Positions 164-51,174 of a DNA stretch of 58,131 nucleotides are shown piece by piece; the first letter of the stretch is position 1, and each line of letters opens with the position of its first letter. The stretch comes from Candidatus Omnitrophota bacterium. GTDB lineage: Bacteria; Omnitrophota; Gorgyraeia; Zapsychrales; Fredricksoniimonadaceae. The notes beneath the pieces were generated by a model that saw nothing but the letters and a program-made list of their open reading frames with translations, searched no databases and was not told where the DNA came from. A program made the translations under genes and the position numbers. The stretch covers positions 1 through 58,131 of the forward strand of contig CAWHFJ010000025.1 of NCBI GenBank assembly GCA_963828495.1, read 5' to 3'.

Positions 164-221
164 GGGCCTTATGTTAAAAAATAACAAGTTTACTAAACTT
201 TAAAATAAAAAGGAGTGGAAG

Positions 222-365
222 ATGAAAAAAACAATGGAAATTCAAGAGATATCTGTTCAAAAACCTTTTTCCCGGGATTGGTTACGGTATGAAATGACGG
301 AAGACGATTTTTTGTTAGGCAACGCAGGTCAATTTTCTCATCATGATTGGGAATGTGATGAATAA
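222..365 (+). CDS. small ORF, 47 aa, hypothetical (MKKTMEIQEISVQKPFSRDWLRYEMTEDDFLLGNAGQFSHHDWECDE)
   Basis: ATG preceded by aaaaggag at the right spacing. Below the ORF-track cutoff. Followed by a hairpin plus T-run. No known motif. Confidence 0.35.
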   Translation: MKKTMEIQEISVQKPFSRDWLRYEMTEDDFLLGNAGQFSHHDWECDE

Positions 366-390
366 AAGTATTTTGATGAAGGAGTGATTT

Positions 391-428
391 AACCCGTTGC
401 AGATGAATAATTTGTAGCGGGTTTTTTG
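391..428 (+). terminator. putative rho-independent terminator after the small ORF
   Basis: aacccg...cgggtt stem (imperfect extension) followed by tttttt. Confidence 0.4.
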
Positions 429-536
429 TTGACCCTTGACGGGAGTTAGAACCTTCCTTAAAAAAGTGTGGGCAGGACAGAAGGGGTGGACTATAATTAC
501 AATTAAGTTGTGTTACTGAAATGGGGAGGAGAATTT

Positions 537-1265
537 ATGACGGAATTTGAAAAATCACATTGGGCCCAAAAAGATTTTTCCAATCAGTACCTGGAAGACT
601 CGGACATCTATATTGTTGAAAGAAGAAGGTTGTTTGAAATTCTAAAATCATTTTATAGGTATTTTTTTGCAAATAAGAAAAATAATAAGATTCTGGATTT
701 AGGTTGTGGGGATGGCATCCTTACGCGAGAACTTTTGAAGATAGATGCGTCCATTTCAGCGACGTTAGTTGATGGTTCACAGGAGATGTTGAGCAAAGCC
801 AAGGAAAAACTATCTGGCGTTGAAGGCATTAATTATGTTAGGGCAAGTTTTCAGGAATTGTTAAGAAAAGACGTTGCTCTTGCCAATTTCGATTTTGTTG
901 TTTCTTCGCTGGCTATTCATCACCTGAATATGAAGGAGAAGAAGTCATTATTTGAATATATCTATTCACGCTTAAATAGCGGCGGATATTTTGTGAACAT
1001 AGATGTCGTTTTTTCGCCAACAGAGAATCTTGAAGGATGGTATCTTCTTTTATGGAAAGAACACATAAAAGAAGTGCAAACCAGATTGAAATTGGAAGGT
1101 AATTATGAGGATATTGTAGAAAGATATAGAAGTAATAAGGATAATCAGCCGGACACTTTAACAGCCCAATTAAAAGCATTGAAATCTGTTGGTTTTAAAG
1201 AAGTTGATTGCTTTTACAAATATGGGATATTCACGATATTTGGCGGGAAGAAATTGGAGGGTTAA
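537..1265 (+). CDS. class I SAM-dependent methyltransferase
   Basis: Motif I ILDLGCGDGILT, acidic loop LVDGSQEML, VSSLAIHHL, SGGYFVNID. ATG at 537 follows ggggagga. The ORF-track start at 510 is probably too early. Confidence 0.8.
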   Translation: MTEFEKSHWAQKDFSNQYLEDSDIYIVERRRLFEILKSFYRYFFANKKNNKILDLGCGDGILTRELLKIDASISATLVDGSQEMLSKAKEKLSGVEGINYVRASFQELLRKDVALANFDFVVSSLAIHHLNMKEKKSLFEYIYSRLNSGGYFVNIDVVFSPTENLEGWYLLLWKEHIKEVQTRLKLEGNYEDIVERYRSNKDNQPDTLTAQLKALKSVGFKEVDCFYKYGIFTIFGGKKLEG

Positions 1266-1293
1266 ATCAGCTCCATTAACAAGTTGAAGCCAT

Positions 1294-1326
1294 CAAACAG
1301 GTCCTAACTTGCTTTGCCCAACGACC
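1294..1326 (+). repeat. boundary repeat copy A (aaacaggtCctaacttg...ccaacgacc)
   Basis: 26 of 32 nt identical to copy B at 7002-7033. Lies between the methyltransferase stop and the symporter start. Confidence 0.55.
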
Positions 1327-1327
1327 A

Positions 1328-2559
1328 ATGTTAGAGAAACCGGCCTTTTTCAAACACTATAGTGCTTCATTAATGCTCCTGGGTGCCATTGCCGTTGGAT
1401 GCGCATTGGGCTTGGGTTAAAAGAAAAAGCGGTTGTTTTTAAGCCTTTTGGCGATGTGTTTCTTAATCTGTTGTTTACCCTCGTTGTCCCCCTGGTTTTC
1501 TTTTCTTTGTCATCCACTGTTGCCGCCATGCCAGATTTAAAACGTCTCGGCCGGATCCTGGTATGGATGATGGTTGTTTTTATAGTCACCGGCATCATTG
1601 CCTGTGGCTTTATGATCATAGCTGTCCGGATATATCCGCCCGCTCAAGGTGTTACTCTTGCCTTGCCTTCCCATGTCAATGCCCAACAGCTGAACATGGG
1701 GGAGACCATCATCAAGGCATTTACCGTGTCCGATTTTGCGGATCTTCTTTCTAAGAAAAACATGCTCCCGTTGATTGTTTTTGCCCTTCTTTTGGGTATC
1801 TCCGCTTCCGCCGCGGGGCCCAAGGCCCGTGCCTTCATTGATTTTCTGGTTGCTGCCAACCATGTGATGGAAAAAATGATTTCTTACATTATGCTTTATG
1901 CGCCCATTGGTTTAGGTGCCTATTTCGCCTATCTGGTCGGTATTTTAGGCCCACAGTTGTTGGGCACATATGTGCGTGCCGTGGAATTATATTATCCCAT
2001 GGCATTCTTTTATTTCTTTTTTGCATTTACCGTTTACGCTTATTTTGCCGGGGGGCTAAGTTGCATCAAAATGTTTTGGAAGAACATTATGCCAGTGGCA
2101 TTGATAGCTTGGGGCACAGGCAGCAGCATTGCTTCCATCCCCGCCAATATGGAGGCAGCCAAACGCATCGGCGTCCCTGAGGAGCTGCGGGAGGTGATCA
2201 TCCCTATCGGAGGGGCCACGCTTCACCTGGAAGGGTCCTGCTTGTCCGCCATTTTAAAAATCGCCTTGTTGTTTGGGTTGTTTCATATACCGTTTGCTTC
2301 GGCAGGGACCATAGCAACTGCAGTCGGCATCGCTCTTTTGAGCGGGACGGTCATGAGCGGTATCCCCGGAGGAGGGTTTTTGGGAGAGTTGTTGATTGTG
2401 ACCATGTATGGTTTTCCAGTGGAAGCCTTGCCTATCATTTCCATGGTTGGGACCCTGATCGACCCGCCTGCCACTATGGTTAATGCTACCGGAGACAATA
2501 TTTGCTGTATGCTGGCCGCCCGTATTTTATATGGCAGAAACTGGATGCCGGTTAGATGA
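1328..2559 (+). CDS. dicarboxylate/amino acid:cation symporter (DAACS/GltP family), frameshifted as read
   Basis: N-terminal 30 aa (MLEKPAFFKHYSASLMLLGAIAVGCALGLG) are in another frame and run into TAA at 1418-1420. The rest (LKEKAVVFKPFGDVFLNLLFTLVVPLVFFSL...GGATLHLEG...IDPPATMVNATGD) matches the family. A 1-nt loss at ggtt(t)aaaag restores a single ORF. Confidence 0.8.
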
Positions 2560-2605
2560 AAAAGATTAGTCCAACCCGTATAATACGTGGAGGTATCTAA
2601 CTACA

Positions 2606-3244
2606 TTGAGACCTGCGTTTTATTTTATTCTATTGGTTGCACAAGGATGTTGCCCTGTTACTCCCCATGCTCTGCAGGTGCTGGAAGCACCGATTAACCA
2701 AGCCATTGTTGTCCATCCGTTGAATAAAAATTCCACTCAAGCCCAGCTAAGTACCTGGCAAAGAGAGGGGGCCGTCTGGCGACGTTTACTTTTTATTAGC
2801 GCGGTGATTGGTAAAAACGGCTTGGGCTTAGCTGGTCAGAAAAAAGAAGGGGACGGCAAAACCCCCTCAGGCGTATATCCTCTTGGCCCAGCTTTCGGCT
2901 ACGCCCCGTTTATAAACACCGGCCTTTCATACCGCCAGGCGGGACCAAATGATTTTTGGGTGGATGATAAGCAATCACGGCAATATAATCAATGGGTCAG
3001 CGGTATGCCCGATGCCAAGTCTTTTGAACGGATGAGGCGCTCTGACGGTCTTTATCAGTACGGGATTGTCATCGGCTATAATAGGCATCCGGTCATATCT
3101 GGTGCCGGGAGCGCCATTTTTATGCATGTCTGGCGGGGGTACAACAGCCCCACCTCCGGCTGTGTGGCGGTCAATCAGAGATACCTGCGTAAAATCCTGC
3201 GCTGGTTGAACCGGCAAGACCATCCCGTTATACTTTTGGAATAA
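2606..3244 (+). CDS. L,D-transpeptidase catalytic-domain (YkuD-like) protein, secreted
   Basis: Hydrophobic N-terminus. Catalytic signature FMHVW...SPTSGCVAV (His ... S/T-x-G-C). TTG start assumed. Confidence 0.65.
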   Translation: MRPAFYFILLVAQGCCPVTPHALQVLEAPINQAIVVHPLNKNSTQAQLSTWQREGAVWRRLLFISAVIGKNGLGLAGQKKEGDGKTPSGVYPLGPAFGYAPFINTGLSYRQAGPNDFWVDDKQSRQYNQWVSGMPDAKSFERMRRSDGLYQYGIVIGYNRHPVISGAGSAIFMHVWRGYNSPTSGCVAVNQRYLRKILRWLNRQDHPVILLE

Positions 3245-3375
3245 TCATCCAGAGATAGAACTTCATTAAGGTTCTGATATTATGGTTCTCTGTAATCTTT
3301 ATTAGATTGCGGGGTTTTTTTGTTTGGGGTAGAATGACTTCTTCAAGAAGATTATTTGAGGGCAAGGAGGTTGAT

Positions 3376-5731: not shown

Positions 5732-6238
5732 ATGTCACTATCAATGTATCAAGCTTCTATACCGGTTTTTATAAAGAATCTAAGTAATTTATCAGCGATT
5801 CTTAAAAAAGCAGAAGCGCATGCTCTGCCCAAGAAAATCGAGCTGGATGTTTTTGTTAATGCCCGATTGGCTCCGGACATGTTCCCGCTGTCACGTCAAA
5901 TACAAATTGCCACTGATGGGGCCAAAGGATGTGCGGCGCGTCTGTCCGGCGTTGAAATTCCAAGTTACCCGGATACTGAGAAGACTTTTCCTGAGTTGCA
6001 GGCACGGATTACTAAGACCATTGAATTTTTAAAGACTTTCAACGCAAAACAGATCGACGGCAGTGAAGAACGCAAGGTTGTCTTGAAGCTCCAGGGTAAG
6101 GAAACCAGTTTTTTGGGGCAACCATATCTATTAAATTTCGTTCTGCCCAATTTTTATTTTCACATTTGTATGGCCTATGCCATTCTCCGGCATAATGGGG
6201 TAGACATCGGTAAGAAGGATTTTATCGGGGGCCTTTAG
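5732..6238 (+). CDS. DUF1993 domain protein
   Basis: N-terminus MSLSMYQASIPVFIKNLSNLSAILKKAEAHA... and ARLAPDMFPLSRQIQIATD are as I remember for DUF1993 (from memory). Confidence 0.65.
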   Translation: MSLSMYQASIPVFIKNLSNLSAILKKAEAHALPKKIELDVFVNARLAPDMFPLSRQIQIATDGAKGCAARLSGVEIPSYPDTEKTFPELQARITKTIEFLKTFNAKQIDGSEERKVVLKLQGKETSFLGQPYLLNFVLPNFYFHICMAYAILRHNGVDIGKKDFIGGL

Positions 6239-6270
6239 TTGTAAGATCAAAGAATTGGGAAGGGGGCTTT

Positions 6271-6576
6271 ATGAAATGGTATCACTATGTTGCTTGCTTC
6301 TTCGCTGGTATGTTCTTAGCTAACGCCGTTCCCCATTATGTGCACGGGATATCGGGTGATGGTTTCCCTTCTCCATTTGCCAATCCTCCGGGAAAGGGGC
6401 TGTCATCTCCAATAATAAATGTTATTTGGGGGCTGGTTAATGTAATCGTTGGGTACATTCTTTTAAGAACGGGTAAAGTCTCCAATTCAAATAAATGGAA
6501 TCTTTTTGTATTTTTTGCTGGTGTTGTTTGCATGAGTATAATATTAAGCTTCGCATTTGTTGACAAGATGCGTTAA
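6271..6576 (+). CDS. small integral membrane protein, hypothetical
   Basis: Three hydrophobic segments and a good RBS (gggaaggggg). Confidence 0.5.
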   Translation: MKWYHYVACFFAGMFLANAVPHYVHGISGDGFPSPFANPPGKGLSSPIINVIWGLVNVIVGYILLRTGKVSNSNKWNLFVFFAGVVCMSIILSFAFVDKMR

Positions 6577-6603
6577 GAGGTCAATAGGGGAAGGAATCAA
6601 AAT

Positions 6604-7014
6604 ATGGACATCAAAAGAATTGGCTCACAACCATCCAACAAAGGACCGGCCGATTGGTTTACAGGCACGGTGCGCATAGACCCTTTATTTCAAACAAGTG
6701 CTCCGGCCCGTGTGGCTGGCGCCAGTGTCACCTTTGAGCCCGGCGCCAGGACAATATGGCACGCCCATCCGTTGGGCCAAACCTTGATTGTGACTGCTGG
6801 TTGTGGTTGGGTGCAACGCCAAGGGGGACCGGTTGAAGAAATGCATCCAGGCGATGTGGTTTTGATTGCGCCTGGTGAGAAGCATTGGCATGGCGCCACG
6901 GCAACTACTGCTGTAACACATATTGCCGTTCATGAACATGTAGACGGTAAGGTCGTTGATTGGATGGAGCGGGTGAATGACGAACAATACCGCTTTGTAT
7001 TAAACAGGTTCTAA
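6604..7014 (+). CDS. cupin domain protein
   Basis: Cupin_2 pattern [17 protein letters not shown]...[16 protein letters not shown]. Confidence 0.8.
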
Positions 7015-7033
7015 CTTGGGCCGTCCAACGACC
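7000..7033 (+). repeat. boundary repeat copy B (ttaaacaggttctaacttg...ccaacgacc)
   Basis: 16-nt exact match to copy C (7000-7015 = 10450-10465) and a 26/32 match to copy A. Overlaps the cupin stop codon. Confidence 0.6.
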
Positions 7034-7054
7034 CTAACATTTGAAATAACATAA

Positions 7055-7092
7055 GCCTCTGTGACTACGCAAGTTGCAGAGGCCTTGTTTTT
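7055..7092 (+). terminator. rho-independent terminator after the cupin gene
   Basis: gcctctg (7055-7061) pairs with cagaggc (7077-7083), followed by cttgttttt. Confidence 0.65.
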
Positions 7093-7196
7093 ATCCTCCT
7101 ACCGTATTTCTTACCGGGTGGTTTTCGTCTATATAAATGTTGTATACTTATATGGAGAAGAAACTATTGATATTTTAGGAAGTATCTTTAAATGAT

Positions 7197-10100
7197 ATGA
7201 GCCGAACCCCATTAGCCCACATAATTATCCTTACAGCCTTTTTGGTTAATACATTTGGGCCCATGCCTTTGGTCCAAGCTCAAGACTTTCGTTTGCCTGT
7301 TCCTGGGGTGATGGTTCATTTAAGCCCGGAATTTAATCCACCAATCTTGAAGGCATTAAAGTCCATCCCGATAATCCATTCCAATTTGATTTTATCTTGG
7401 ATAAAGGTGATAGCCGGTTAGGTAATGACCAGCTTAAAGATGAATCCACTAAGTTGATTAAATATTTCCTTGCCAGCCTGACAATTCCTGAAAAAGATCT
7501 ATGGGTTAACTTATCGCCTTATGAAAAAGATCGCATTATCCCCACAAGTTTTGGGTTAACCGGAATGGGCCGGGACCTGCTGGCGGAAGATTACATGCTG
7601 AAACAGATAACCGCGAGTTTGATTTATCCTGAAGGTGAAGTCGGAAAGAAATTTTGGAAACGCATCTATGAAGAAGCAGCCAAAAAATTTGGCACAACCA
7701 ATATTCCGGTCAATACGTTTAATAAGGTATGGATACTCCCTGAGAAGGCGGTTGTTTATGAGAATGCCAAGGCAGGGACGGCCTATGTAGTTGAAAGCAA
7801 ATTAAAGGTCATGCTGGAACAAGACTATCTTTCCCTTGAGAAACATGAGGGGATTCAAGCAACCCAGAGGAACCAGCCTAACGCCGTACAACCAAGCGCC
7901 CTGGGCTCTCAAATCGTCCGCGAGATAGTCATCCCCGAACTGACCCGTGAAGTCAACGAAGGCAAAAACTTCGCCCAACTGCGCCAAGTCTACAACAGCC
8001 TCATTTTAGCCACATGGTACAAAAAGAAAATCAAAGACAGTATTTTGTCTCAAGTATATGCGGATAAAAATAAGGTGACAGGTGTTAATATCGATGATCC
8101 GCAGGAGAAAGAGAGGATTTATCAGCGATATCTTAGAGCTTTTAAGAAAGGCGTCTTTAATTATATCAAAGAAGATGCAATCTCTATCCCCGATATGCCG
8201 AGCAAGGAACAGGGAATATTTCCAAGAAAATATTTTTCCGGCGGTGAAGATTTAATTAATATGGATAGCGCGATGAACATTACGCAATTGGTCCCCCAAA
8301 AATTTACTATTAAAGGCAGCTTAGTTAGAATTTTCAGCAAAATGGATGCGGCAATGGATGTGCCACATTATGCGGATAGATTAAAATTCTTAAATCCTGA
8401 GTATGTTTCTTCATATGAAGATTCGCCGCCTTCTCGCATAGGAAATCAAGATATGTCTGTCAATGTAACCCAACCAATGAAAGTAAAAGGTCTAGATGAA
8501 TTATTATCTGAATTTAATAAAGAAACCATTAATCAACATATAGAAGTTGTTATGTTAGGAGCTGGGAATGCGGTAGCGTATCATCCGGATATCAATTCTT
8601 CGCCCCAAGCCATAGAAATAATTGGGGCACTGAGTAATGGAAGGCAAGGAGTGCTTGACTTTACAATTGTTGACCGCAGCCCTAAAGTACTCGAGGTGGC
8701 TACAGGTAGGGATCAAAAATACGTAAGTAATGATTTTATCTCGGATTCCGTAAATCATATGGTGACTTCCCATAATGTAATTGCAGGTCGACGTGTTTAT
8801 AATATTGTTATCCATGACAACACAAATTTAGAAAGTTTTAGAGGTAGCTTTCAAGAATTGATGTATGGGGAAAATCAAGTTAATTTGATTATAGCAACAA
8901 ATTCCTTAATTTATTCCTATAGAGCGCTCAATTATGATAAAGGGGCTTACTTAGCATTGATCCTTAGTTTGATAAGAGCGTTAAAGCCATCAGGGAAATT
9001 ACTGATAGATCGACCTTCCCTTGCTGCTTTTATGCCACAAATGGGGGAAGGGAGAGAGGATTCTATAATCAAGGAATCAGATGCCAAAAGATTCGAAGGG
9101 GAGGTTCAAAAATTTGAGGAAGATTTATATAAAAATTACGGGGTAGATATTAGATTGAGATTTTATGATGGCATTGTCGAAATTGAAAAACTGCCCAATT
9201 TAATCAAACGCATTCGAGCCTACGTTAAATCCAGGCTTTTTGCAGAGGGATCGGTTGGACGGGGCCCCATCAGATTTAACTCTCGAATAATTAAAATAGG
9301 CAGCACCCCATTTGACCAGAAAATGGCGGTGGTCACTAAGGAGATAAATAAGATTAGGGCCGGGTTGCGCCAATATTTTACAACAGAAAGTCCGGAGTTT
9401 GATGGTGAAATATCGGAAGGATTGGAAGCTAAAATTTATTATGATGCGCGTGATCCGACGCACAGAAGGTTTTATAAAATATTTTCTAGAGGGGGGGAAC
9501 AGAATGAAGATGAAATCGTATTTTTAAAATATTTGGAAAGTAAGGGAGTTGCAGACGTTCCCAGAGTCTTAGATTGGGGTTTTATAGGTAATGATGTATG
9601 GGCCCATATGGAAGGCATTGCAGAAGCCCAGAGTATCCAAATTTTTAATAAGCAGACCGGGGAGTTGAAATTCTCGCCCATTTGGACTAGGTTAAGCTTT
9701 CCACAGCGTCTTGCTGTGCTCGCTAAAGTAGCTAAGATTTTGTCGGAGGTCCATAAAATGGGGATCAGTGATAACGATGTGAAACCCCTGAATATTATTA
9801 TCAATGATCAAGGGGATGTTATGGTGATTGATTGGAATATTGCTGTGAAATTAGGACAGGAACAAATAATGGGAACTACAGGGTATAGAGCACCAGAGGA
9901 AATAATAATGCTAGACCAGACAGATGTTTATGGTTTGGGGAAAACCATTTACTATAGTCTTGTATCATCACCAGAATACCTTGAGGCTACGGACTTAGCC
10001 AGATGCTTAAGAAATTTCGAAGATGAGATGACACGGCCAAACAATGAAGCCAATAATCGGCCATCGATGGAAGAATCTGCCGAATATCTAGGGGAAATTG

Positions 10101-10453
10101 CCCAATGGGCTGTAAACCCGCAAGCCAAGCCTGAGGCATGGCATCCCAAGCAGTTGGTGGTGGAGTCGAATCAAGGGAAAGTCATGAAAACTGTGTCCCA
10201 CATTGTGCAAAGGGCGAAAAGACTTATTGGGAAAGATGCTGCGATGACTAATGGGGGTATCGACTTAACTCCTGCTAATATGAATGTACAGACACAAAAT
10301 GCAGGTGAAGGGATTAAATTTCACATGGACCCCGCCATACTGCAACAACTTCAAAACGCCCCCGGTTTTGTGCCGGTCATCATCAATATCCAGCCGATGA
10401 CGGATCTCAGGCAATTTCTTGGCATTCAAGAAAGCGTTCCCGCAGCCGGTTAA
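7197..10453 (+). CDS. large secreted modular protein: signal peptide + conserved N-terminal module + class-I methyltransferase-like fold + Hanks-type Ser/Thr protein kinase domain + conserved C-terminal GGIDL...MTDLRQFLG tail. One frameshift as read.
   Basis: ORFs 7197-7421 and 7397-10453 join if one A is restored at ~7351 (ILK-GIKVHPDNPFQFDFILDKGD). MTase-like region is ~8540-9010: VVMLGAGNA, FTIVDRSPKVLEVA, NLIIATNSLIYSY, LKPSGKLLI. Kinase region is ~9400-10100: FYKIF, EDEIVFLKYL, DNDVKPLN (9770-9795), VIDWN (9829-9837), GTTGYRAPEE (9890-9898), DVYGLGKTIY. Confidence 0.75.
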
Positions 10454-10465
10454 ACAGGTTCTAAC
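10450..10465 (+). repeat. boundary repeat copy C (ttaaacaggttctaac)
   Basis: Exact 16-mer shared with 7000-7015. Overlaps the stop codon of the large protein. Confidence 0.55.
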
Positions 10466-10473
10466 ATCCTCAT

Positions 10474-10998
10474 TTAACCCGCCCATTTGTTGAAATGAAC
10501 ATGAGCGGGATTATATTTGTCTCGAGGTTTATCTTCTCCGGTCGGCATACCAACCGCGATCACGCATAACGGGCTTATGTGTTCAGGCAGTACGAGTATT
10601 TTTTTGACTAACGCAACTCGCTCTGCCCTTGGATGAGCCGCGGTCCAGCATGCGCCTAGCCCTAATGCTTTGGCGGCAAGAAGAATATTTTCCGCAGCTG
10701 CTGAACAGTCTTGCACCCAATAGTCGCTTGAGCCGGTATCGTGAGCTGTACTTAAATCACTGGCCACAACGATAGCGTGTCTTGCCGTTAAAAGCATTTT
10801 AGCATAAGGCAGTCCTGTGGCAAGCGCGTCAATAAGCGACGGGTCATCCACAATGATAAAACGAAAATGCCGTGTGTCACGGGAACTGGGTGCTGCCATG
10901 CCCGCTTTTGCCAGTTGTAATAGAATTTCCCGGGAAACAGGGGCCTTGGTGTATCTTCGAATACTCCTTCGTTCCAAAATAGTTTTTAAAGTGTCCAT
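10474..10998 (-). CDS. nitroreductase family protein
   Basis: MDTLKTILERRSIRRYTKAPVSREILLQLAKAGMAAPSSRDTRHFRFIIV.... The ATG at 10998 is chosen over the longer ORF-track start at 11202. Confidence 0.8.
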   Translation of the reverse strand: MDTLKTILERRSIRRYTKAPVSREILLQLAKAGMAAPSSRDTRHFRFIIVDDPSLIDALATGLPYAKMLLTARHAIVVASDLSTAHDTGSSDYWVQDCSAAAENILLAAKALGLGACWTAAHPRAERVALVKKILVLPEHISPLCVIAVGMPTGEDKPRDKYNPAHVHFNKWAG

Positions 10999-11167
10999 GA
11001 TTGTCCTTTCGTTGATTATCATTTTAACAAATGGTGATGATACTTTTTGTAATAATTTGAATTTTTTTCCAACATGACCTCCCATAATTAAAAGCTTCAA
11101 AAAGTCATTGCGCATAACTATAATTATTTGAAACTGCACATTATAGAAGGGGGGAGAGAATACGATC

Positions 11168-11539
11168 ATGGCTAATCCAAGAATTCTTTTGTGGTTTGGC
11201 ATTGTGTTGATTTTGATGATTGGCCTTATCCATGTGATTGATGCAAAAGACAGCTTTAACGATGCTGTTTATAAGGGTTGGCTTTTTTATGCTAATGGAG
11301 TTGGGGCATTGATTGCTGCATATGGTATTTCCCGTAAGCATCATTGGGGGTGGAACCTGGGACTTCTAATTGCAACAGGTTCTTTTATTGGCTATGTGAT
11401 GAGCCGTACTGTAGGATTGCCTCAAATCCCGGCTGAACCTGATGCATGGTTAGAGCCACTGGGCGTTGCCGCATTGATTGCAGAGGCGCTATTTGTGGCG
11501 GTTTTTATTGGGAGGGGAGTGTCCCATAGACACAGTTAA
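11168..11539 (+). CDS. integral membrane protein, hypothetical (4 predicted TM segments)
   Basis: Hydrophobicity pattern only. Confidence 0.5.
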   Translation: MANPRILLWFGIVLILMIGLIHVIDAKDSFNDAVYKGWLFYANGVGALIAAYGISRKHHWGWNLGLLIATGSFIGYVMSRTVGLPQIPAEPDAWLEPLGVAALIAEALFVAVFIGRGVSHRHS

Positions 11540-12060: not shown

Positions 12061-12552
12061 ATGGGAACAAAAGGACGGGAAATCGTTGGAGTAGAAGTTA
12101 AAGGATTAGTGAAGTTGCTTAACAAAGCCTTGGCAGACGAGTGGCTGGCTGTTTATCAATATTGGGCAGGTTCCAAAGTAGCCGTCGGCAGGATGCGCGG
12201 GATTGTCGCCAAAGAGTTACAAGAGCATGCGACAGAGGAATTAGAGCATGCCAATAAGCTTACAGACCGTATTATCCAGCTTGGGGGTTCACCGCTTCTT
12301 AATCCGGAACAATGGACAAAAGAAACCAATGGCGGTTATGATGAACCGAGCAATCCTAATACCAAAAAATTGCTGGAGCAGAATATCAAGGGAGAGCAGG
12401 GTGCCATTGCTGTTTACAGTAAGCTATTAAAAATGGTTGAGGGCAAGGACGCACTGACGGCGCATCTTGTCTTGGAAATTCTAGAAGATGAAGTGAAGCA
12501 CGAGGAAGACCTAGAGGCTATGCTCGAAGACATGAAGACAAAAGTCGAATAA
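12061..12552 (+). CDS. ferritin-like (bacterioferritin/Dps-like) di-iron protein
   Basis: Four-helix di-iron ligands: EWLAVYQY, ATEELEHANKL, GEQGAIAVY, LEDEVKHEEDL. Confidence 0.75.
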   Translation: MGTKGREIVGVEVKGLVKLLNKALADEWLAVYQYWAGSKVAVGRMRGIVAKELQEHATEELEHANKLTDRIIQLGGSPLLNPEQWTKETNGGYDEPSNPNTKKLLEQNIKGEQGAIAVYSKLLKMVEGKDALTAHLVLEILEDEVKHEEDLEAMLEDMKTKVE

Positions 12553-39357: not shown

Positions 39358-41080
39358 ATGAGAATTTTAGGTTTGATTTTTATATTATTTTTATCTTTGG
39401 TTAATGTGGCAGCGGCGCAGGAAGTTTTGGATTTGGACAAAATTGTTGTTGAGGCGTCCCGCAGCAATGATACTGTTGGTGCAATGAATAAAGATGTAAC
39501 CGTTATTACTTCTGAGGATATTGCCAATTCGCCGGCTAAGAGTTTGCCCGAGTTATTGAACGAAGTGCCTGGTGTTGACGCAAGAGTCAATAGCAGTATT
39601 AAGGATCAGCAGATTGATATGGGGCAGTTTGGGGAGTCGAGCATGTCTAATGTGGTGGTGTTAATTGACGGCCGGCGTTTGAATACGCCTGATCTGGCTG
39701 CTGCGGATTTGTCACTGATTGACGTAAATGCCATTGATCATATTGAAGTCATACAAGGGGCCGGTACCGTGCTTTATGGGGACAATGCCACCGGTGGGGT
39801 CATCAATATTATAACCAAGAAGGCCCAAGAAAATACCAAGCCGTCCATTACCTTGACCAGTGAAGTGGATGAGTTTAAGGGGAATAAAGAGGGCATGAGC
39901 TTAAGCGGCGGACTGCCTCAATTGACGTATCAAATTGATTATAACCGCCAACAAACGGACAATTATCGTACCCAAGATAATTATTGGGCCAATGATTACG
40001 GTACGCGTTTAAACTATAACCCTACGGATATCTTTGGTGTTGATTTTTCAGAAGGTTATCACTTGGACCGTTATCGCCTGCCGGGGGCCATCAGTCTTGA
40101 GGCAATCAACACCGCGGGGCCGACGGGTGTGGACCCATCAAGTACCGATTATGGGACGACATCGGATTCTCATTTTGATGTTACCCCGCATATGAAATTT
40201 GACATAGGCGCCAGCCATGTGGATCTTTCATTATTTACCTCTGCCCGTAAGAGTGATACTAATTTCGTTTCAAGTTTTGAGTCAACAAACTATGAATTGG
40301 AATCCTATGAATTTCAACCTAAGCTCATCGTATCAACTCCTTTAACAGATCGTTTGAGCAATAAATTAACCTCAGGGTACGACTATATTTATTATACGGA
40401 AAAACGACGCATCGATCCTGACGGTGAACCTGAGGATATTGTTCATGCCAGCGAGGCTTCACAGGGGGTTTATGTGTTAGATGAGGCAACCCTGGATGAT
40501 CGTTGGCTGCTGAATGCCGGGGCCAGGGGGTCGTGGGCAGACTACGTTTTTGATCAAACACAACAAGCAGCTGCAAAATTTGATCGTTCCCCTACAAATG
40601 AAGGCTATGAGGGAGGTTTAGGGTACAAGTATAATCCTGATTCAAAAGTATTTGTGGATTATACCCGTTCCTATCGCTTGCCCAAACTCGATGAATTTTT
40701 TGAAAACCCTTATTGCATTTATGGGTTTTGTGTACCGGGAGGGTTAAATTCCGGATTAACCCCGCAGGTGGGCAATCAGTACCAATTAGGTATTAAGGAC
40801 AAAAGCTTTAAAGGCATTCATTTAGGTTCCAGCTTTACAGAGGTCCAATATAGGAATGAGATTTACGATGATCCTGCAACATTCTCTAATGCTAATTACG
40901 ACGGTAAAACGAGGCATTATAGCGAAGAAGCAGATCTTGCCGTGGCACTGTTTAATAATAAGATTGAGCCGTTTGCCAACATCACCTTCCAACAAACGGA
41001 ATTTATTAAGGGACAATATGCGGGCAATCAAATCCCGGATGTCCCTGACCATCTGGCCCACGCGGGCATAACTTATCGGC
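39358..41080 (+). CDS. TonB-dependent receptor (BtuB-like), 3'-truncated at the block junction
   Basis: Signal peptide, TonB box DKIVVEASR, plug (LLNEVPGVD...VLIDGRRLN...IEVIQGAGTVLYGDNATGGVINIITKK) and barrel. The C-terminal strands and terminal aromatic residue are missing. Confidence 0.85.
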
Positions 41081-41099
41081 CGCTGGAGCGGTTAAGCAC

Positions 41100-42090
41100 G
41101 ACTATTCCTGCGGCGACACACGTCGGAAGCAGATCGAGTTGAACGACCGGCTTTTCGTACAACTTGCCGGCCGGCAGCTTTCCCTTCCATTGGACCATGA
41201 ACGGCACTCGCATGCCGCCTTCCCAGGTCGTGTACTTGAAGCCGCGGAGCGGGCCATTCCCTTCCGGATGGCCGCCGGTGTCCCGTTATCGCTGACGAAG
41301 AACACAAGTGTGTTCTCCTCGTGCCCGGTCCGGCCGCATGGCTTCGAGGACTCGTCCCACGCCATCATCGAGCGCCGAAAGCATGGCGTTCAACACGCGC
41401 TGTTTGCGGTCGGTGACGTGCTTGAACCGCTCCAAATACTTGTCCGATGCTTCATGTGGTCCGTGGATGGCATTGAACGGTAGATACAAGAACCACGGGT
41501 TGTCCTTGTGCCGGGTGATCCAATCACTGGCCCGCGGCAAAGGCATCCGTTGTGTAAAAGTTCGGGTCCTCGATCGGCTGAACGTCGGCCGAGACCCGCG
41601 AGTCGATGAACCCGCCTGGTTCGAAATACGAGCCCGGATTGCCGGTCACTCCGTAGTAGTCGTCGAAACCACGCGACATTGGCAAGCGACCATCGATTTT
41701 ACCAAGATGCCATTTGCCAACCGCGGCGGTGCTGTAGCCGAGCGTTTTCATCCGATCGGCAAAGGTTTTTTCCGTGAGCGGCAGTCCGCCGCCGGCCAGC
41801 GAATTGTTTTCATGGCCATACCGCGTCGGATAGCGGCCGGTCATCATTCCGGCCCTCGACGGTGAGCAGAGCGGGGCCGAGACATAACCGGCCGTGAAAC
41901 GAATGCCGCTGGCGGCAATCGAATCGATGTTCGGAGTTGGCACTTGCTTGCCGCCATAGCAGCCCAATTCGCCATACCCCAGATCATCCGCCAGGATCAC
42001 GAGGATATTCGGCAATCGATCCGCCGCCGCCGGGCGAGCCGCCATTGAAAAGCTGGCCAACACGATGAGGGTCAAAAGACATGCTTTCAC
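41100..42090 (-). CDS. arylsulfatase-family sulfatase, 3'-truncated at the junction and frameshifted at least 3 times as read
   Basis: Signal peptide, NILVILADDLGYGELGCYGG, formylglycine motif CSPSRAGMMTGRYP, GKWHLG. Later segments (NPWFLYLPFNAIHGP, TLVFFVSDNG, GHPEGNGPLRGFKYTTWEGGMRVPFMVQWKGKLPAG...QLDLLPTCVAAGI) are in other frames. Confidence 0.85.
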
Positions 42091-42286
42091 GATTGCTTGC
42101 TCCTGGCAAGGCCTGGATTGCAGTGGGCGGCGATGAAACGACCGCCCAATAGACGCTTGAGCGAGGCAGATTATTTGCCTTGCCTGGTAGTCGCAAGGTG
42201 CCTTCCCATAACGACAGGCTGTATGCTTGATCGGAAAAGGCCCGGCAAGCTGTTCGCGGCCATTGCTGCCACGCTACAATTCGACC

Positions 42287-42703
42287 ATGAAATCCAAGAC
42301 CGAATACCTGACGTTTAACCTGCCGGCCCGCATGGCCTTCCTGAACATCACGCAGGAAGTGGCACGGATCGTTCGCGAAAGCGGCGTCCAGGAGGGCCTG
42401 GTGCTGTGCAACGCGATGCACATCACGGCCTCGGTGTTTATCAATGACGACGAGCGGGTTGCACGAGGACTATAAGAAGTGGCTCGAGCAACTGGCTCCG
42501 TTCGATGCGTCGCCCAGCCGCTATCAACACAATCGCACCGGCGAAGACAACGCGGACGCGCACATGAAGCGGCAAGTCATGGGCCGCGAGGTCGTCGTGG
42601 CCATCACGGCCGGCAAGCTCGATTCGGACCGTGGGAGCAAATCTTTTACGGCGAGTTCGACGGCCGGCGGCCAAAGCGCGTGCTGGTCAAAGTGATTGGA
42701 GAG
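42287..42703 (+). CDS. yjbQ: YjbQ/UPF0047 family protein (secondary thiamine-phosphate synthase), frameshifted at least 2 times as read
   Basis: [18 protein letters not shown]...[20 protein letters not shown] / [15 protein letters not shown]...[28 protein letters not shown] / [24 protein letters not shown]. No stop is found in the last frame. Confidence 0.75.
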
Positions 42704-43141
42704 TCAGCGCATTTGCGTCAGGCCTCGATCCGCGGAGCGTTACGGTCCCAATCAGGGACCGTGGCCATCGTTACGCTCGTGGCAGGCTGTGCTTTTCCGA
42801 CTGCCTCATGCTAGCACCTCCGCTAAACCCCGCCGCAGATGACGAATTGGCCGCCGATCGACCAATTCGCCCAATCAAGCCGGTCTAAACTGGGAAGTCT
42901 GGCTGAGTTGTGCGCTTTGTTCCAAAAAGCGTGAAATGCCGGTTACGCCGAGTCGATGAGTTTTTCTGAGCAAACCGTTTATTCCCAAAAGTGTTGTTAT
43001 ACGGAACGATCGGGAAATGCTCACCTGGCCGCGGCAACCCGCTTGCCGCCGCGCTTAGAGGCGGAACGAAACCCAGCAGCCAACGACAAAGACCCAGCGG
43101 CGGCGAAAAACGCTGGCCGAGCACGAGCATCGACGGAAAAA

Positions 43142-44692
43142 GTGTTTCCCTTATCGGCACGGTTTGTTCCCAACTCCGTTCGCCGCCTGGCTTGGAGTTT
43201 GACCCTGGCGATTGGCGGCGTGGCTACGGCGGACGATGGCCTGGCCGACAAACTGATCGCTCCGCCGCTTCCGCCGGCCCCGTCGAGCGCAGCCAACGCT
43301 CCAGAAGAAGTCGAGGCCGAAAACACGGAAGTCATTAGGAACGCTATCCGAACCGCAACGTCAAGGTGGAACGCCACGTCGCCCAAGATGCGGACGGCAA
43401 TTATGCCAACCATGGCACCTGGTCCATTGTGGGATTAAGAACGGCCGGCGCATGTGCCGCGGCCAGTATCAGAACGGAGCTCGTGAAGGGAAGTGGGTCC
43501 GGTTCTTCAAAGCCGGTGAGGCCGAAGTCGTATCCGGCCCGCTCGGCAAAAGCTTCAGTGCCCCGTTCACCTCGGCCGTCACGTTCTTGCATGGCGAACT
43601 CAACGGCACGTGGACGATCGTTGATTGCGCGAGCGGCCGGTCATTTCCTGGCAAATGGAAGACGGTCAACGTCACGGCAAGAGCATCTGGTGGTTCCCCA
43701 ATGGCCAGAAATGGCGCGAGATGGACTATGTGCACGGCGAACTCGACGGCTTCCTCGTCGAATGGGACGCCAACGGCAAGCTCGTTGCCAAAGAACAGTA
43801 CGTCGAAGGCCATCGCTGCGGCGTGCAAATCGAATGGTATTCACCAGGCGTGAAGAAGGTTGAAGCCCAGTACATCTTCGCCCGCGACATCGCGCAAATT
43901 AACGACGACTGGTTCAAAGGGACCAGCCACGTCCGAGTCCTCGGCAAGGAGGGCAAAGACGAGCGGCACGGTCACTGGACGACCTATTACAGCAACGGCC
44001 AGAAGGCGATGCAGGGTGAATACCGTTTCGACAAGCCGTCGGGCGTGTTTATCTGGTGGCATCCCAACGGCCAGAAGGCCATCGTCGGCGAATACACGGA
44101 CGGAAAGCAAACCGGCCATTGGGCCTGGTGGCATGCCAACGGCCAGAAACACATCCGCGGCAACTACGAAAGTGGACGCCAGGCCGGCGCATGGACCTGG
44201 TGGACCGAAGACGGCAAGGTCGCCGAAGCCGCCTCCTTCAATGAGGAGGGGGGCCGAGTCCGGCGCGTCGATCGGCCGTTGGAAGCGGTCGAGCAGCCGC
44301 CGGAGTTGCAAAACCCGGCGGATGCCCAGCCTTCGGCGAATGAATCGGCACAAGCCAAGGCGTCATCGGCCGCTGAACCGGCGACGGTAACCCCGATGCC
44401 GGCCGCGACGTTGCCAGCGGAGCCAGCCGCAACGGTTTCGGCTCCTACGAACCCGACGCCAGTTGACAGTCTGCCAGAGCTGACGCAACCGCCAGCCGTG
44501 GTTGAGCCGAGCAATGGGACGGAAGCCGCCAAGCCGAACAGCCCTGCGACCGTGGAAAAGGACGAAGCGGCCGCGCCACCTGCTCCTCGCCGCGCCGCAC
44601 GCTTGGCACCTCCGCGAAGGGCTAGGCGCATCGCGGACCTTGACTGCCTTAGCTCAAGGTCCGCGCCCAATAACATCCACCGCCACGCTTAA
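43142..44692 (+). CDS. secreted MORN-variant (YwqK-type) repeat protein with a Pro/Ala-rich tail, frameshifted at least 4 times as read
   Basis: Repeats of the form G-x-W-x-WW-x-NGQK-x-x-x-G-x-Y-x-x-G (YSNGQKAMQGEYRFDKPSGVFIWWHPNGQKAIVGEYTDGKQTGHWAWWHANGQKHIRGNYESGRQAGAWTWW). The start (GTG 43142) is uncertain. Confidence 0.65.
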
Positions 44693-44996
44693 TACCGCGG
44701 ACGACCGATCTCAACCGTCCACTTCTTCGAATTCGAAGAGCGGGTCGCCTGCACGGACGCTGCATTCAGGGCGGAACTCAGCTCATCGGCCCGCTTCACC
44801 CGCGTCCCAGCGTCGTTAGGAGCGCGCGGGATCTTCCGCGCATCTCCACGCGCCCGGCTTCAGTACCTATATTGAATCGGGCGCACGCCGAACGCCACAG
44901 CGGAACCAGGCGAGGCCTCCAGGCGAACCTTGCTGGTCGCGCCGTGTCAGTGGATTTCATGGGACCTGGACCGCTGCCTTGTTGGTGATTCGTGTC

Positions 44997-46393
<1,397 letters not shown>

Positions 46394-46418
46394 GCCGACC
46401 AGTCTTGCGATGGCCTGC

Positions 46419-48297
46419 TCAATCGAAGCGGTGATGTTCAAACTGACATAGCTGGCGTTCCAGCGTTTCGCGTGCGCTGTAATTGGCTTTGATCCAGTCT
46501 CGCGACTCCTTGCCGAGCATTTGTAGCCGTGCGGGCGAGCTGAACGCCCGGCGGAGCTGGACGACAATGTCCGCCTCGCTATAGGCATTGATTATCGGAG
46601 GGACCGACGGAAAGCGGCCTCGGATGGCGGCCTCGTCCAGATAGGTGCAAACCGGCGCTGTGGCGGCCATCGCTTTGAGCATGATGCCGCCAAACGCGCC
46701 GAGATGGAATTGATCTGCGACCACGTCGCAGGCCTGGGCCGTTCGTTCAAATTGAACCATGCCCATGGTTTCGACCCACTTGACGTCACTCGCGACTCTC
46801 AGCTCCTCGAGCAAGGCCAGACTCTCGGGGACATTGCTTCCCCAACGGCAACAAACCATGCCGATTCGCATACCTTCACCGCGCAGGCGAGCGAAAGGTG
46901 CGCAACAGCTTGTCGTTGCCTTTATCGGCATAGCCGGTGCCAGGAACCCAGTCGTGACGCGTCGGAAAGAAAGATCAGAAAATCGGCATCGAGCTCGCGA
47001 ACCAGTTGAGTTCGCCGTTGATTGATTCCGGTCACGGCCAACGAATGGTCGTCGTCGAATGGATGATTGAGGAACGTGACCCGATCGGCGGCCAATCGGC
47101 GGCCATTTTCGTAGCAGTCGGAGTTCGTGACAAAAACATGTTCGGCCATGTGGTAGGCCAGTGCGGTGAGCCGGCCCGTCGGGTCGTCCTCAAACGGGAT
47201 TTGCGCACAGCGTGCCGTGCTCGAGCGCAAATAGGGGCAATCGGCCAACAGCGGTAAGATCGGGTCCGTCGAGTAGCCCAACAACAGATCGTAGTGGCTG
47301 AACAGTTCTTTCCAATGCGGCATCGCCCAGCGGTAGAATTCCATGTCCTGCCGCGTCAATTGATCGCGACGGCCAGGAAAAGCGGCGGCAAAGGCCTCGA
47401 TCAGCACGTCCATGCGTCGGTCGAAGCTGTATTGTTCGGCAACCCGGGGTGTGATTGCCGTTGCAGCTTGTTGATGCGTCCCATGGGCCGGCGTGAGCAG
47501 CCGGACTGCGGCGCTGCGAAACCGTCTCAGGCAGGTATGAATCGCTTCCGTGAAAAGAATGCATTGCAGCTTCACCAGCTTGGCCACTTGCCGCAGTCTG
47601 GGGTGACGATAGACGAGTGTGACCGCGACCCGAGGCGCAGCCCAGCAACAGCCACCAGCCGCCAGCCTGCCAGCGGCGCGGACTGTGGCGAGCGGCCAGG
47701 TATCTCCAGCACAACCGCGCGGCCCTTGGGCAAACCAGCCCGCGGCCGCCGAAAGCCTCTCAGTCGAACGCGCTCCCAAGCTGGATAAAAGTCGTCGCGA
47801 ACGTCGCCTTCGAAGTCCGCGTCTTCCCACTCGGGACAGCCCATGATGTGGTAATAGTTGTGGCAAATAACATCACTGTCGAGGCCGACCTCATTGAGCA
47901 GCTTGGCATTGTTGTAAGCGTTGTTGGCAATGTTCCCGATGTGCAACAGGCGTGGAGCGCGACCATGGCGTCGGCGAAACTCATCCAGCCAGGCAATGCA
48001 TTCAGGCGCGACCCGGCCAGTGGACGGATCTGGCAGCGGAGGGGAATCGTGGCGAAGTGATCGCCGCGACTTCCGGAGAACGGAACAAACTATTGCAGCC
48101 AGGTTGCTTAAGGTGAAGCCGATTAATGGCCGGTCCACGCGGAAGATCGTCTGGCTGTCGTTGTCACCGGCGAACGAGGACATCTGGCGACGGCCTGCCG
48201 GCAGCTTCCAATGCCCCAACCGCCGGAAAACCCTTGAGCTTAAGCGCTCAACGAAGAACCGCACTCCCGGCTTCCTGCCTGGGGTCTGTGGTGTCAT
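46419..48297 (-). CDS. large glycosyltransferase-like protein (GT-B C-terminal half), frameshifted at least 2 times as read
   Basis: N-terminal LLHIGNIANNAYNNAKLLNEVGLDSDVI. C-terminal FGGIMLKAMAATAPV resembles the GT4 E-x7-E region, but both Glu positions are replaced (G and K). Confidence 0.45.
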
Positions 48298-48401
48298 GAA
48301 TGATTCCGCCGCCTGGCTCCGATTCCGATTACAGACTTTGTGGCTACAGCTTAGCCGATCTTACGGCCCGGCAACAACGCACCGGTCGGCAATGAACCCG
48401 C

Positions 48402-48830
48402 TCAAGGAATTGCTAGCCCCTTTCGTCCTTCAAATCCGAAGGCTTGCGCGAGCTTGGAATCAATCGCCAGTCTGTCTCGGAGCATGGAGAGGCGATTTTG
48501 TCGGCGGTATGTCCCGGTCCAACCAATGGCGGAGTCGAGCATAGAACTGGCCTGAAGTTTCGCCTTCCATGCCTGGCACTCGCCGAGAAGTTTCGTTCGG
48601 CGCTGCAACTCAGCGGCTCCGGGAGGAGTTTGTTCAAGCTGGCGGACGAACGCCAGTAACTCCGTCAGCTTGCCGTCATTAAGCTCTTCTACAAGGAGTG
48701 CCTCTTGCCGGCTTTGGTACTGCAGGGTTATCTCGTGGTCCTCACGATTCGCTTTTCGGCTGGCATCCATCCTGAATCTCCATTTTCCATCGCGTTTGGA
48801 TTCACTACAAACATGATAGCAGTTCGGCAC
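48402..48830 (-). CDS. hypothetical protein
   Basis: 142-aa ORF with coding-like composition and no motif. Confidence 0.3.
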   Translation of the reverse strand: MPNCYHVCSESKRDGKWRFRMDASRKANREDHEITLQYQSRQEALLVEELNDGKLTELLAFVRQLEQTPPGAAELQRRTKLLGECQAWKAKLQASSMLDSAIGWTGTYRRQNRLSMLRDRLAIDSKLAQAFGFEGRKGLAIP

Positions 48831-49033
48831 GATGCTGATGGCAAAAGCCGAGGCTTGCGGACATGATTTGTTGCGATTTTCGCGCCATGTTGCTCATATT
48901 ATACGCGGCTTTCCAGGCCGCAGTGGACAGCGTTGGCCTCGACTCGCGTCAGTTACCGGTTGTCGGACGGCGTACATTCGGCCTGGTGTGAAAGCCGGCT
49001 CGTTGGAAATCTTTTCAAGAAAGGTCGGCTGCC

Positions 49034-49617
49034 ATGCGATTCATGAAATCGGCATCGCCTCAGGTTCTTTTGGTTTGCGGCATGGTCCTGGCAACCTTCA
49101 GCGCAATCGGGATCGGACAGAGCAAGTTGACCGCGGCAGAACCGGCCGACAAGATTGGGCAGCTTTTCAAGGCGGACGACTTCTGGTCGCGAACCGGAGC
49201 CAGCCCGATCCACGATTCGATCACGCCCAGGGACAACGATTCCGTCCGGCAATTGGCCGGAAATGCAGAGCATTCCGCCGTGCGTATTCGAGCCTTCAAG
49301 GTGTTGGCCGATCTTTACGGACGGACTCAGTACGCAAGCGATGTTCCGCGCGAGCAGAGGTTAGAGGCGGTCGAAGGTTGCTTTTTATATTTGGAACAGC
49401 ACTTGACGCCCCCGTGGTATCGAAGTTTCGGCCAGAATTAGGATTCACCCACGTTAGTCTCTCGAAGCGGTCAGACGATCGGGATGGACTGTGGGTGCTG
49501 ATCGAGGCCACCGATGGCGTCTTGCCAAGCGGCGGCTTGAACATCCGCTGGGATCTGACCTCGAAGGCGGTCGATCGAATCGACCATTGGGGAGCCAACC
49601 GTAATCCCCTGCCGTAG
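49034..49617 (+). CDS. secreted hypothetical protein, probably one frameshift near 49435
   Basis: Signal peptide MRFMKSASPQVLLVCGMVLATFSAIGIG. The reading continues in another frame (LGFTHVSL...DRIDHWGANRNPLP*). Confidence 0.35.
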
Positions 49618-49883: not shown

Positions 49884-51105
<1,222 letters not shown>

Positions 51106-51174
51106 CTTGTTTTCCAAGTCGACGAGGCCGTAGCCTTTAAAGTCATCCATGACTGTCGCATCGCAATGAGCAGT

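Follow-up and report, generated by a model that had tools for sequence, protein, structure and literature searches.

The gene described here lies on the + strand at positions 7197-10453 of contig CAWHFJ010000025.1 (assembly GCA_963828495.1) of a Candidatus Omnitrophota bacterium; the window, i.e. the whole stretch of DNA that was analysed, comprises positions 1 to 58,131 of this contig (58,131 nucleotides). Omnitrophota are widespread, uncultured, ultra-small bacteria. In the window the gene is split into two overlapping open reading frames (ORFs) on the + strand, 7197-7421 (74 amino acids, aa) and 7397-10453 (1018 aa), and the addition of one base anywhere within ~7337-7360 joins them into a single frame of 1085 aa. 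The repaired product combines a predicted Sec-type signal peptide with two conserved terminal regions, an N-terminal module (N-module) and a short tail, which enclose a class I methyltransferase (MTase)-fold module and a Hanks-type Ser/Thr kinase. It appears to belong to a very large family of Omnitrophota proteins with constant terminal regions and an exchangeable middle, and may be an exported effector. Only one copy of the family is present within the window. Its parts are:

7197-7283, + strand: Sec-type signal peptide (aa 1-29, MSRTPLAHIIILTAFLVNTFGPMPLVQAQ), with predicted cleavage after VQA/AQA, recognised by hydrophobicity scan and family conservation.
7284-8245, + strand: conserved N-module (aa 30-350 after repair of the frame) with PRKYFSGG at its end, delimited by homologue alignments and family searches.
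7349-7354, + strand: frameshift site, GAAGGC in the window and GGAGGGC in six other assemblies; one G lost, frame -1.
8246-8359, + strand: linker with two D-x-A-M motifs, DSAM (8264-8275) and DAAM (8345-8356).
8342-9202, + strand: class I MTase-fold module, identified by AlphaFold2 (AF2) modelling and Foldseek, sub-threshold in Pfam; landmarks are motif I VVMLGAGNA (8546-8572), IVDRSP with the beta2 Asp (8666-8683) and LKPSGKLLI (8981-9007).
9410-10150, + strand: non-RD Hanks-type Ser/Thr kinase module, identified by Pfam, NCBIfam, alignment with PknA and family alignment; landmarks are the catalytic loop DNDVKPLN (9770-9793), DWN in place of DFG (9830-9838), GTTGYRAPE and DVYGLG.
10235-10423, + strand: D-x-A-M delimiter DAAM (10235-10246), then the tail GGIDLTPANM...GFVPVIINIQPMTDLRQFLG.
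10424-10453, + strand: variable C-terminal extension IQESVPAAG and stop codon, the latter inside the right copy of a direct repeat.

All five parts of the layout read in a preliminary description of this DNA (signal peptide, N-module, MTase-like region, kinase and tail) could be located, in the same order. The description had also repaired the frame by one A at ~7351; a single base is indeed missing there, although six other assemblies indicate that it is a G in a run of G. These were found among eight further contigs of the same population, retrieved via the upstream cupin protein: six assemblies (L001, L003 and L005-L008, of which L005, L006 and L008 were assembled by Logan from public sequencing runs) have CTTGGAGGGCATT in place of the CTTGAAGGCATT of the window, and in all six, short-read ones among them, the ORF is unbroken at 1086-1090 aa. 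The L001 gene, called intact with 1086 aa, reads PPILEGIKVH and differs from the repaired window protein by 5 aa. The family consensus PPIL(K/E)GIKVHPDN is restored in the window only by an insertion near 7349-7353, and the 1018-codon remainder is free of stops. The interruption is a loss of one nucleotide in the G run near 7350 that is specific to this assembly, caused either by an assembly error or by a rare variant. In two other assemblies of the same locus (L002 and L004), the gene and its neighbours are split into many small ORFs at differing places, which points to indel-rich, long-read-type assemblies and backs an assembly error in the window. A programmed -1 frameshift was ruled out, since no slippery heptamer occurs at the site and the other assemblies carry one more G.

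The N-terminus of the product has a positively charged n-region, a hydrophobic core of ~15 residues, a Gly-Pro break and a predicted cleavage site between VQA and QD, and the rest of the protein has no hydrophobic segment according to the hydrophobicity scan. The signal peptide was called by sequence rules. Its features are conserved among the relatives whose N-terminus is complete: all of them (107/107) have the hydrophobic core and 94% a net positive n-region, while position -3 is A or V in 95/107 and position -1 is A in 91/107, followed by Q/D-D/E-F. As the preliminary description had proposed, this would be a signal peptide, with what reads as a textbook signal peptidase I site.

The N-module is 75-86% identical to hundreds of relatives across 298 aa. 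The tail (aa 1020-1076, ~60 aa), with nine variable residues behind it, is found as GGIDL...GFVPVIINIQP...FLG within ~70 aa of the C-terminus in 119 of the 120 best matches by regular expression and in all 120 by alignment. No match was found for the N-module in Pfam, NCBIfam, PHROGs or PDB sequences, nor for the tail in Pfam, NCBIfam, PHROGs or PDB; a profile of the whole-family alignment compared with PDB sequences gave only low-complexity and coiled-coil noise from the variable middle. The scaffold was modelled by AF2 on a short member of 600 aa (P0032) with a 70-sequence alignment. The model has a mean predicted local distance difference test score (pLDDT) of 55 and suggests a mixed alpha/beta N-module with blocks at 70-90; a Foldseek search with it against PDB and BFVD gave no match at E<=0.001. 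The N-module, which ends in KYFSGG and is ~320 aa long, had been regarded as uncharacterised, and neither it nor the tail matches a characterised family by profile or by fold.

Among 39 N-modules from five metagenome-assembled genomes (MAGs), the aa identity averages 0.79, while the identity at four-fold degenerate sites is 0.33-0.36 vs 0.26 expected from composition, and pairs within a genome are no closer than pairs between genomes. The nearly saturated synonymous sites, together with the similar identities within and between genomes, show that the paralogues are ancient and under strong purifying selection at the protein level, and rule out gene conversion as the source of the conservation. 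A loose targeting signal would need less constraint than is seen over these 320 residues, which argues that the N-module works in or on a conserved machine, or co-assembles.

Distant homologues of the N-module (34-37% identity) occur on two IMG/VR contigs classed as viral (L209, ~5809-7775, and L210). In the L209 protein, a signal peptide and an N-module with RSYFSGG at its end are followed by a Pro/Gly-rich linker and a multi-pass transmembrane (TM) region, with no enzyme cargo or tail and no match in PHROGs; this architecture would be consistent with an extracytoplasmic N-module. One of the two homologues adjoins a 1381-aa ORF that was read by eye as phage tail/host-specificity-like. Within the family, the N-module closes with FSGG-x-D-L/M/F-AM, similar to the NGGIDL with which the tail opens; this hints that the cargo might have been inserted into an originally continuous protein. 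The N-module also has a variable loop between SLEKHEGIQ and LGSQIVREI (window ~7850-7900), where homologues such as P0013 and P0022 carry in-frame insertions reading VIPAKAGIQ, VILSAAKDL or IPAPTGALGQAKAGIQ; these look like a translated GC-rich palindromic repeat element, reminiscent of Rickettsia palindromic elements.

At least 4,872 matches came from a word-indexed search; they share only the N-terminal third, at 56-81% identity. An exhaustive HMMER search against 1.84 billion cluster representatives (clusters counted at 50% identity) gave 7,838 proteins at E<=1e-3, of which 6,221 also pass E<=1e-30. Every protein found by HMMER has the N-module at its N-terminus; the longest among the top 150 representatives has 2,610 aa, and in 120/120 best matches an N-module ending at aa ~320-435 is combined with a tail ~65 aa from the C-terminus. 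At least 552 loci in species-representative genomes encode the N-module. The MAGs that contain the 80 loci retrieved are all titled Candidatus Omnitrophota or 'uncultured Planctomycetales', apart from one case of 'bacterium'. Tandem arrays are frequent, and two MAGs carry at least 12 and at least 11 copies, respectively. Judging from these matches, the family is very large and probably restricted to Omnitrophota. The joint recurrence of N-module and GGIDL tail, which the preliminary description had stated for many large proteins of candidate phyla such as Omnitrophota, is thereby extended to all 120 best homologues and to thousands of clusters.

The proteins sharing these termini have highly diverse middles, in line with the earlier idea of variable enzymatic cargo. 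The precomputed Pfam labels, from which the cargo domains were read, include Pkinase, several MTase families, GNAT, HATPase_c, HEAT, PLD, Glycos_transf_1, Metallophos and SNF2, and further Response_reg (CheY), FHA, Guanylate_kin, PPDK_N, aminotransferase, DnaJ and PolyA_pol; fewer than half of the middles bear any Pfam label. The MTase-like module of the window protein recurs in P0006, P0007 and P0008, and its kinase module in P0002, P0005 and P0040, while P0003, P0004 and P0011 carry the kinase module in two to three tandem copies. The modules are shuffled as units. The motif D-x-A-M (sometimes D-x-A-Q) is 25-fold enriched (344 observed vs 13.5 expected) and stands just after KYFSGG, before internal modules, and 5-25 residues ahead of GGIDL; in the window gene it begins at 8264, 8345 and 10235. 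A signal at the DNA level was considered for this motif, and only a mild GCC/GCG bias before ATG was found, so it was taken as a protein-level feature. The shortest matches (P0140 and P0123) were rejected as cargo-less members, since they have no tail and look truncated.

The kinase module matches PF00069 with 46.3 bits (cutoff 31.7), only the C-lobe being matched (model positions 103-212), and NCBIfam also gave kinase matches for the window protein. In alignment with PknA it keeps D861, K863 and N866 (DNDVKPLN), D879 (DWN), APE (899-901) and the subdomain IX Asp. The beta3 Lys (K761, in FYKIF) and the alphaC Glu (E773) are conserved in an alignment of 12 paralogous kinase modules, which also keep H/D-N-D-V-K-P-x-N, D-W-G/N and R-P-S-M. 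The glycine-rich loop is degenerate: the segment ISEGLEAKIYY at the homologous position has one Gly, 2-3 Gly are found in the paralogous modules, and the GxGxxG pattern is absent. Judged by its residues, the module is a bona fide Hanks-type kinase domain with a complete catalytic set and is apparently active; both the kinase and the lack of an obvious glycine-rich loop agree with the initial reading. PADLOC returned only generic kinase-domain matches (PD-T4-6, MkoA and Stk2) and no defence-system context.

The MTase-like module (aa ~385-670) has 28-48% identity with the corresponding modules of P0006, P0007 and P0008. Its Pfam scores are sub-threshold (Methyltransf_31, 12.3-16.6 bits vs a cutoff of 27; Methyltransf_25 and Methyltransf_11 likewise), and the PDB sequence profile match was 1ve3 with E=0.57. 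The AF2 model, built on a shallow 4-sequence alignment, has a predicted template modelling score (pTM) of 0.70 and a mean pLDDT of 61, and predicts a class I topology (b1-aA-b2...b6-b7) with the GAG loop after beta1 and Asp493 at the end of beta2. Foldseek gave 185 PDB matches to this model at E<=1e-3 (best 1.9e-7), and the top 50 listed are class I S-adenosylmethionine (SAM) MTases or spermidine synthases. The GAG of motif I (G455, G457) is invariant in 4/4 homologues, within an atypical loop (MLGAGNA plus an insertion); the beta2 Asp (D493) is present in the window protein and missing in one of the three relatives (P0008). The class I MTase fold, proposed earlier from Rossmann-type motifs, is thus supported by the model, while the sub-threshold Pfam scores and the residue pattern leave MTase catalysis uncertain. 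The G+C content of this module (window 8346-9200) is 0.37, compared with 0.43 for the N-module, 0.42 for the kinase, 0.47 for the tail and 0.44-0.45 for the neighbouring genes, which is consistent with separate cassette histories.

The surroundings of the gene contain three further features:

7000-7015, + strand: left copy of the 16-bp direct repeat TTAAACAGGTTCTAAC, overlapping the last codons and the stop of the cupin gene (6604-7014).
7016-7196, + strand: leader (upstream region of the gene unit), G+C content 0.37, with a terminator-like hairpin at 7055-7083 and a T run.
10450-10465, + strand: right copy of the 16-bp direct repeat, holding the stop of the family gene; the stop of the nitroreductase gene (10474-11202, - strand) lies 8 nt further on.

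The repeat, exact in both copies, brackets 3,450 bp, and the chance of a match at both places is ~1e-5 to 1e-3. The gene is monocistronic, with an upstream region of 182 nt and the convergent nitroreductase gene (10474-11202, - strand) downstream; the bracketing repeat, the own upstream region, now found to contain a hairpin, and the monocistronic organisation all had been part of the preliminary description. Upstream are genes of aldo-keto reductases, ABM, DUF1993 and cupin proteins, and behind the nitroreductase follow a ferritin and a response regulator.

Flanking direct repeats of at least 15 bp were found around 5 of 55 other family genes, the maximum in a sequence-reversed control being 11 bp. 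In another MAG (L073), a family gene is flanked by a 35-bp repeat whose core AAATTAGTTCTAAC is homologous to the window repeat, and its leader keeps the hairpin and the sequence that follow the repeat in the window. In L019, a tRNA-Gln gene (7549-7620) lies directly upstream of the family gene P0023; a 23-bp repeat corresponds to the tRNA-Gln 3' end and has its second copy (12196-12218) in the final codons of P0023, so that an attL/attR-like pair encloses a single gene with no integrase inside, an arrangement that reads as the classic footprint of site-specific integration. The repeats around the window gene and those in L073 and L019 suggest cassette-like integration, and the gene units look like single-gene cassettes that may integrate or duplicate at short repeats. 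The repeat core GTTCTAACTTGG was ruled out as a marker of all family gene borders, and a metagenome scan for AAAYWRGTTCTAACTTGG found at least 120 sites, none of them adjoining a family gene, which belong to another, promoter-like element. This element of ~45 nt, TTTTGAAAATAGGTTCTAACTTGGTACAATAAAGACAC, is conserved in at least 120 metagenome contigs (L089-L208), groundwater assemblies included, and reads as a -35 box TTGAAA, a 16-nt spacer and an extended -10 box TGGTACAAT; it often has a GC-rich hairpin with a T run ahead, adjoins tRNA genes, lies ~93 nt from contig ends and has no match in Rfam. It resembles the repeats of family genes (window 7000-7030; L073 6753-6787) but never adjoins such a gene.

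In 6 of 80 loci (L012, L021, L023, L051, L058 and L068), tyrosine recombinase genes lie no more than a few hundred nt from the end of a family gene, which is not clearly more than chance; in L012, three such genes stand in tandem (175-3372, - strand) and are recombinase-in-trio-like. A contig with a tandem pair of kinase-bearing genes (P0002/P0005; Joint Genome Institute, JGI, 3300050821) continues with a type II secretion system (T2SS)-type ATPase (PF00437) and, 7 kb on, a secretin (PF00263). L211 has three to four family genes, with CsgG-like, Fic and helix-turn-helix (HTH) genes among them. Within the window, the G+C content jumps from ~0.45 to ~0.60 at ~41-42 kb, and the remainder of the stretch (41000-58131) has only short overlapping ORFs of up to 355 aa on both strands; possible reasons are a chimeric join of two organisms, a foreign island or a badly error-ridden sequence.

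With about even confidence, the window gene can be assigned to a huge family of modular, Sec-exported proteins that is restricted to Omnitrophota and in which a common scaffold carries swappable cargo, likely as an effector. The cleavable signal peptide would carry the protein across the inner membrane. The ~320-aa N-module and the ~60-aa tail, invariant in position and strongly constrained at the protein level, would form the common scaffold, which may be recognised by, or assemble into, one conserved apparatus that delivers, anchors or translocates. Between N-module and tail would lie the interchangeable cargo, made of cassettes each preceded by D-x-A-M; in the window protein it would consist of the class-I-MTase-fold module and the catalytically complete non-RD Hanks-type Ser/Thr kinase. 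The most likely role of the exported protein would be that of an effector whose target is the cell surface, or lies on or inside a host or prey cell. The gene unit itself, alone between housekeeping genes and with the 16-bp direct repeat at its flanks, may also be a cassette. The cargo depends overwhelmingly on ATP, SAM or nucleotides and is of a normally cytoplasmic type, and Omnitrophota have been proposed to be host-dependent or predatory nanobacteria (PMC10066038); thus, delivery to a partner cell or to a cell-cell interface would be the most economical explanation, and the effector role is put forward as a hypothesis of this kind.

Several points weigh against this reading. The export of the family proteins is predicted from sequence features, and ATP-dependent cargo would be useless in the periplasm unless delivered onward, a step that we infer. 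The poor model of the N-module (pLDDT 55) and the absence of a fold match mean that no mechanism can be read from the structure. Given its sub-threshold Pfam scores and the missing beta2 Asp in P0008, the MTase-like module may lack catalytic activity or be a fold for ligand binding. No secretion-system genes lie near the window copy, and, the recombinases apart, no neighbour gene recurs across the 80 loci, so that these offer no candidate immunity or chaperone gene. Finally, the window copy itself is frameshifted.

A more far-reaching version, in which the N-module and tail form a new phylum-specific export or translocation platform bringing cargo into host or prey, and the genes are integrase-independent cassettes moving at att-like sites, tRNA 3' ends included, is tentative and probably goes too far. 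If true, ultra-small Omnitrophota would have a new system of effector delivery together with a mobile 'effector cassette' economy, which might be the small-gene counterpart of their giant Archaeovorin proteins.

The main rival explanation is co-assembly, in which the N-modules and tails of paralogues polymerise into a surface layer, a filament or a periplasmic lattice that displays the enzymes instead of injecting them. Conserved termini around a hypervariable centre follow the logic of flagellins and pilins, the signal peptide features in 107/107 relatives fit as well, and the strength of the N-module constraint, extraordinary among such ancient paralogues, favours it and is seen more typically in proteins that self-assemble or are part of a machine than in secretion signals. 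However, the cargo is of cytoplasmic type (kinase, CheY, SNF2, DnaJ, guanylate kinase) with no obvious use at the surface, and no repeat, coiled-coil or known polymer fold was seen, the AF2 model being uninformative; such an array is considered unlikely, though it deserves more weight than the explanations that follow.

Two further explanations are improbable to a similar degree. The first is membrane-anchored signalling, in which the hydrophobic N-terminal helix would be an uncleaved anchor and the N-module a periplasmic sensor, with the kinase and MTase cargo signalling in the cell's own cytoplasm. It accords with the many signalling-type cargo domains (Ser/Thr kinase, HATPase_c, response regulator and FHA) and with the multi-pass TM region behind the N-module of L209, but the window protein has no second hydrophobic segment between N-module and cargo, which leaves cargo and N-module together on one side of the membrane and disfavours any activity in the own cytoplasm; in addition, the canonical A-x-A cleavage site is conserved and much of the cargo is not of the signalling type (PLD, glycosyltransferase, aminotransferase, SNF2). 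The second is a classical polymorphic toxin, i.e. a trafficking region with variable toxic domains directed against competitors and paired with immunity genes. Trafficking-like modules, hypervariable recombining enzyme domains, numerous paralogues, tandem arrays, some toxin-compatible cargo (PLD) and the Fic gene nearby in L211 would all suit it. It is disfavoured because no immunity-like neighbour exists: the 80 loci show no small conserved downstream gene or recurrent neighbour, and the gene downstream of the window copy is the convergent nitroreductase. Moreover, the variable part is central and not C-terminal, and most cargo is not of known toxin domains.

That the gene is a decaying pseudogene or an assembly artefact without functional significance in this organism, as the broken frame at ~7350 might suggest, is highly implausible, because intact alleles exist (the six assemblies with the extra G, of which L001 is nearly identical in aa sequence), and the stop-free 1018 codons and the full retention of the kinase catalytic residues also speak against decay.

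Under the preferred reading of an exported scaffold with exchangeable cargo, the family would be a concrete candidate for the interaction toolkit of Omnitrophota, with members in the thousands and at least a dozen copies per genome. Having no Pfam or NCBIfam model, structural relative or description in the literature searched, it represents a large block of unannotated sequence space; a full-text literature search for the family motifs gave nothing relevant. The family may further account for the way in which the giant multi-enzyme proteins of the phylum arise, e.g. by the fusion of cassettes.

Among known systems, the closest are the giant Omnitrophota proteins named 'Archaeovorin', in which domains of these kinds follow signal peptides or TM segments (West-Roberts et al. 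2023, preprint, 10.1101/2023.11.21.568195; 2026 preprint, 10.64898/2026.06.07.730766; also mentioned in PMC12419801). They share with the present family the phylum, the signal peptide and such domains as methyltransferases, HATPase_c, GNAT, HEAT, glycosyltransferases, PPDK_N and receiver domains, and have been proposed to act on host or prey. However, Archaeovorins have 10,000 to more than 100,000 aa and mostly many TM helices, whereas the window protein has 1,085 aa and a single N-terminal hydrophobic segment; a term search of the two Archaeovorin preprints found no description of the N-module/tail scaffold or of the D-x-A-M delimiters.

Compared with PknA and PknB, the window kinase has the same D-x-K-x-x-N, Mg-binding Asp, APE and subdomain IX Asp, but differs in being non-RD (DND for HRD), in having DWN for DFG and a Gly-poor P-loop, and in its divergent N-lobe without a Pfam match. 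It also stands behind a signal peptide inside the scaffold, whereas PknA and PknB are cytoplasmic domains of membrane receptor kinases.

MARTX toxins resemble the family in having conserved N- and C-terminal regions around interchangeable effector domains, which are shuffled through recombination among paralogues or strains and have short linker sites between them. They possess glycine-rich repeats and an internal cysteine protease domain and use type I secretion without a Sec signal peptide, whereas the window protein has no RTX repeats or cysteine protease domain in Pfam or NCBIfam, no sequence homology to MARTX, and a Sec signal peptide instead. The cargo proteins of the type IX secretion system (T9SS) of Bacteroidota likewise combine a Sec signal peptide, arbitrary domains and a conserved C-terminal part, with dozens per genome; their sorting domain is, however, a C-terminal domain (CTD) of ~70-100 aa, they have no conserved 320-aa N-module, they belong to another phylum than Omnitrophota, and the window tail does not match the T9SS CTD models in Pfam or NCBIfam. 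Polymorphic toxins of the Rhs, CDI and MafB types also form large paralogous sets with a conserved delivery part and a recombining hypervariable enzymatic part, although their toxin is at the extreme C-terminus and is accompanied by an immunity gene, while the variable part of the present family is internal and no immunity-like neighbour recurs in the 80 loci. By this comparison, the window protein would combine modules without detectable relatives into a design of the modular exported effector family type.

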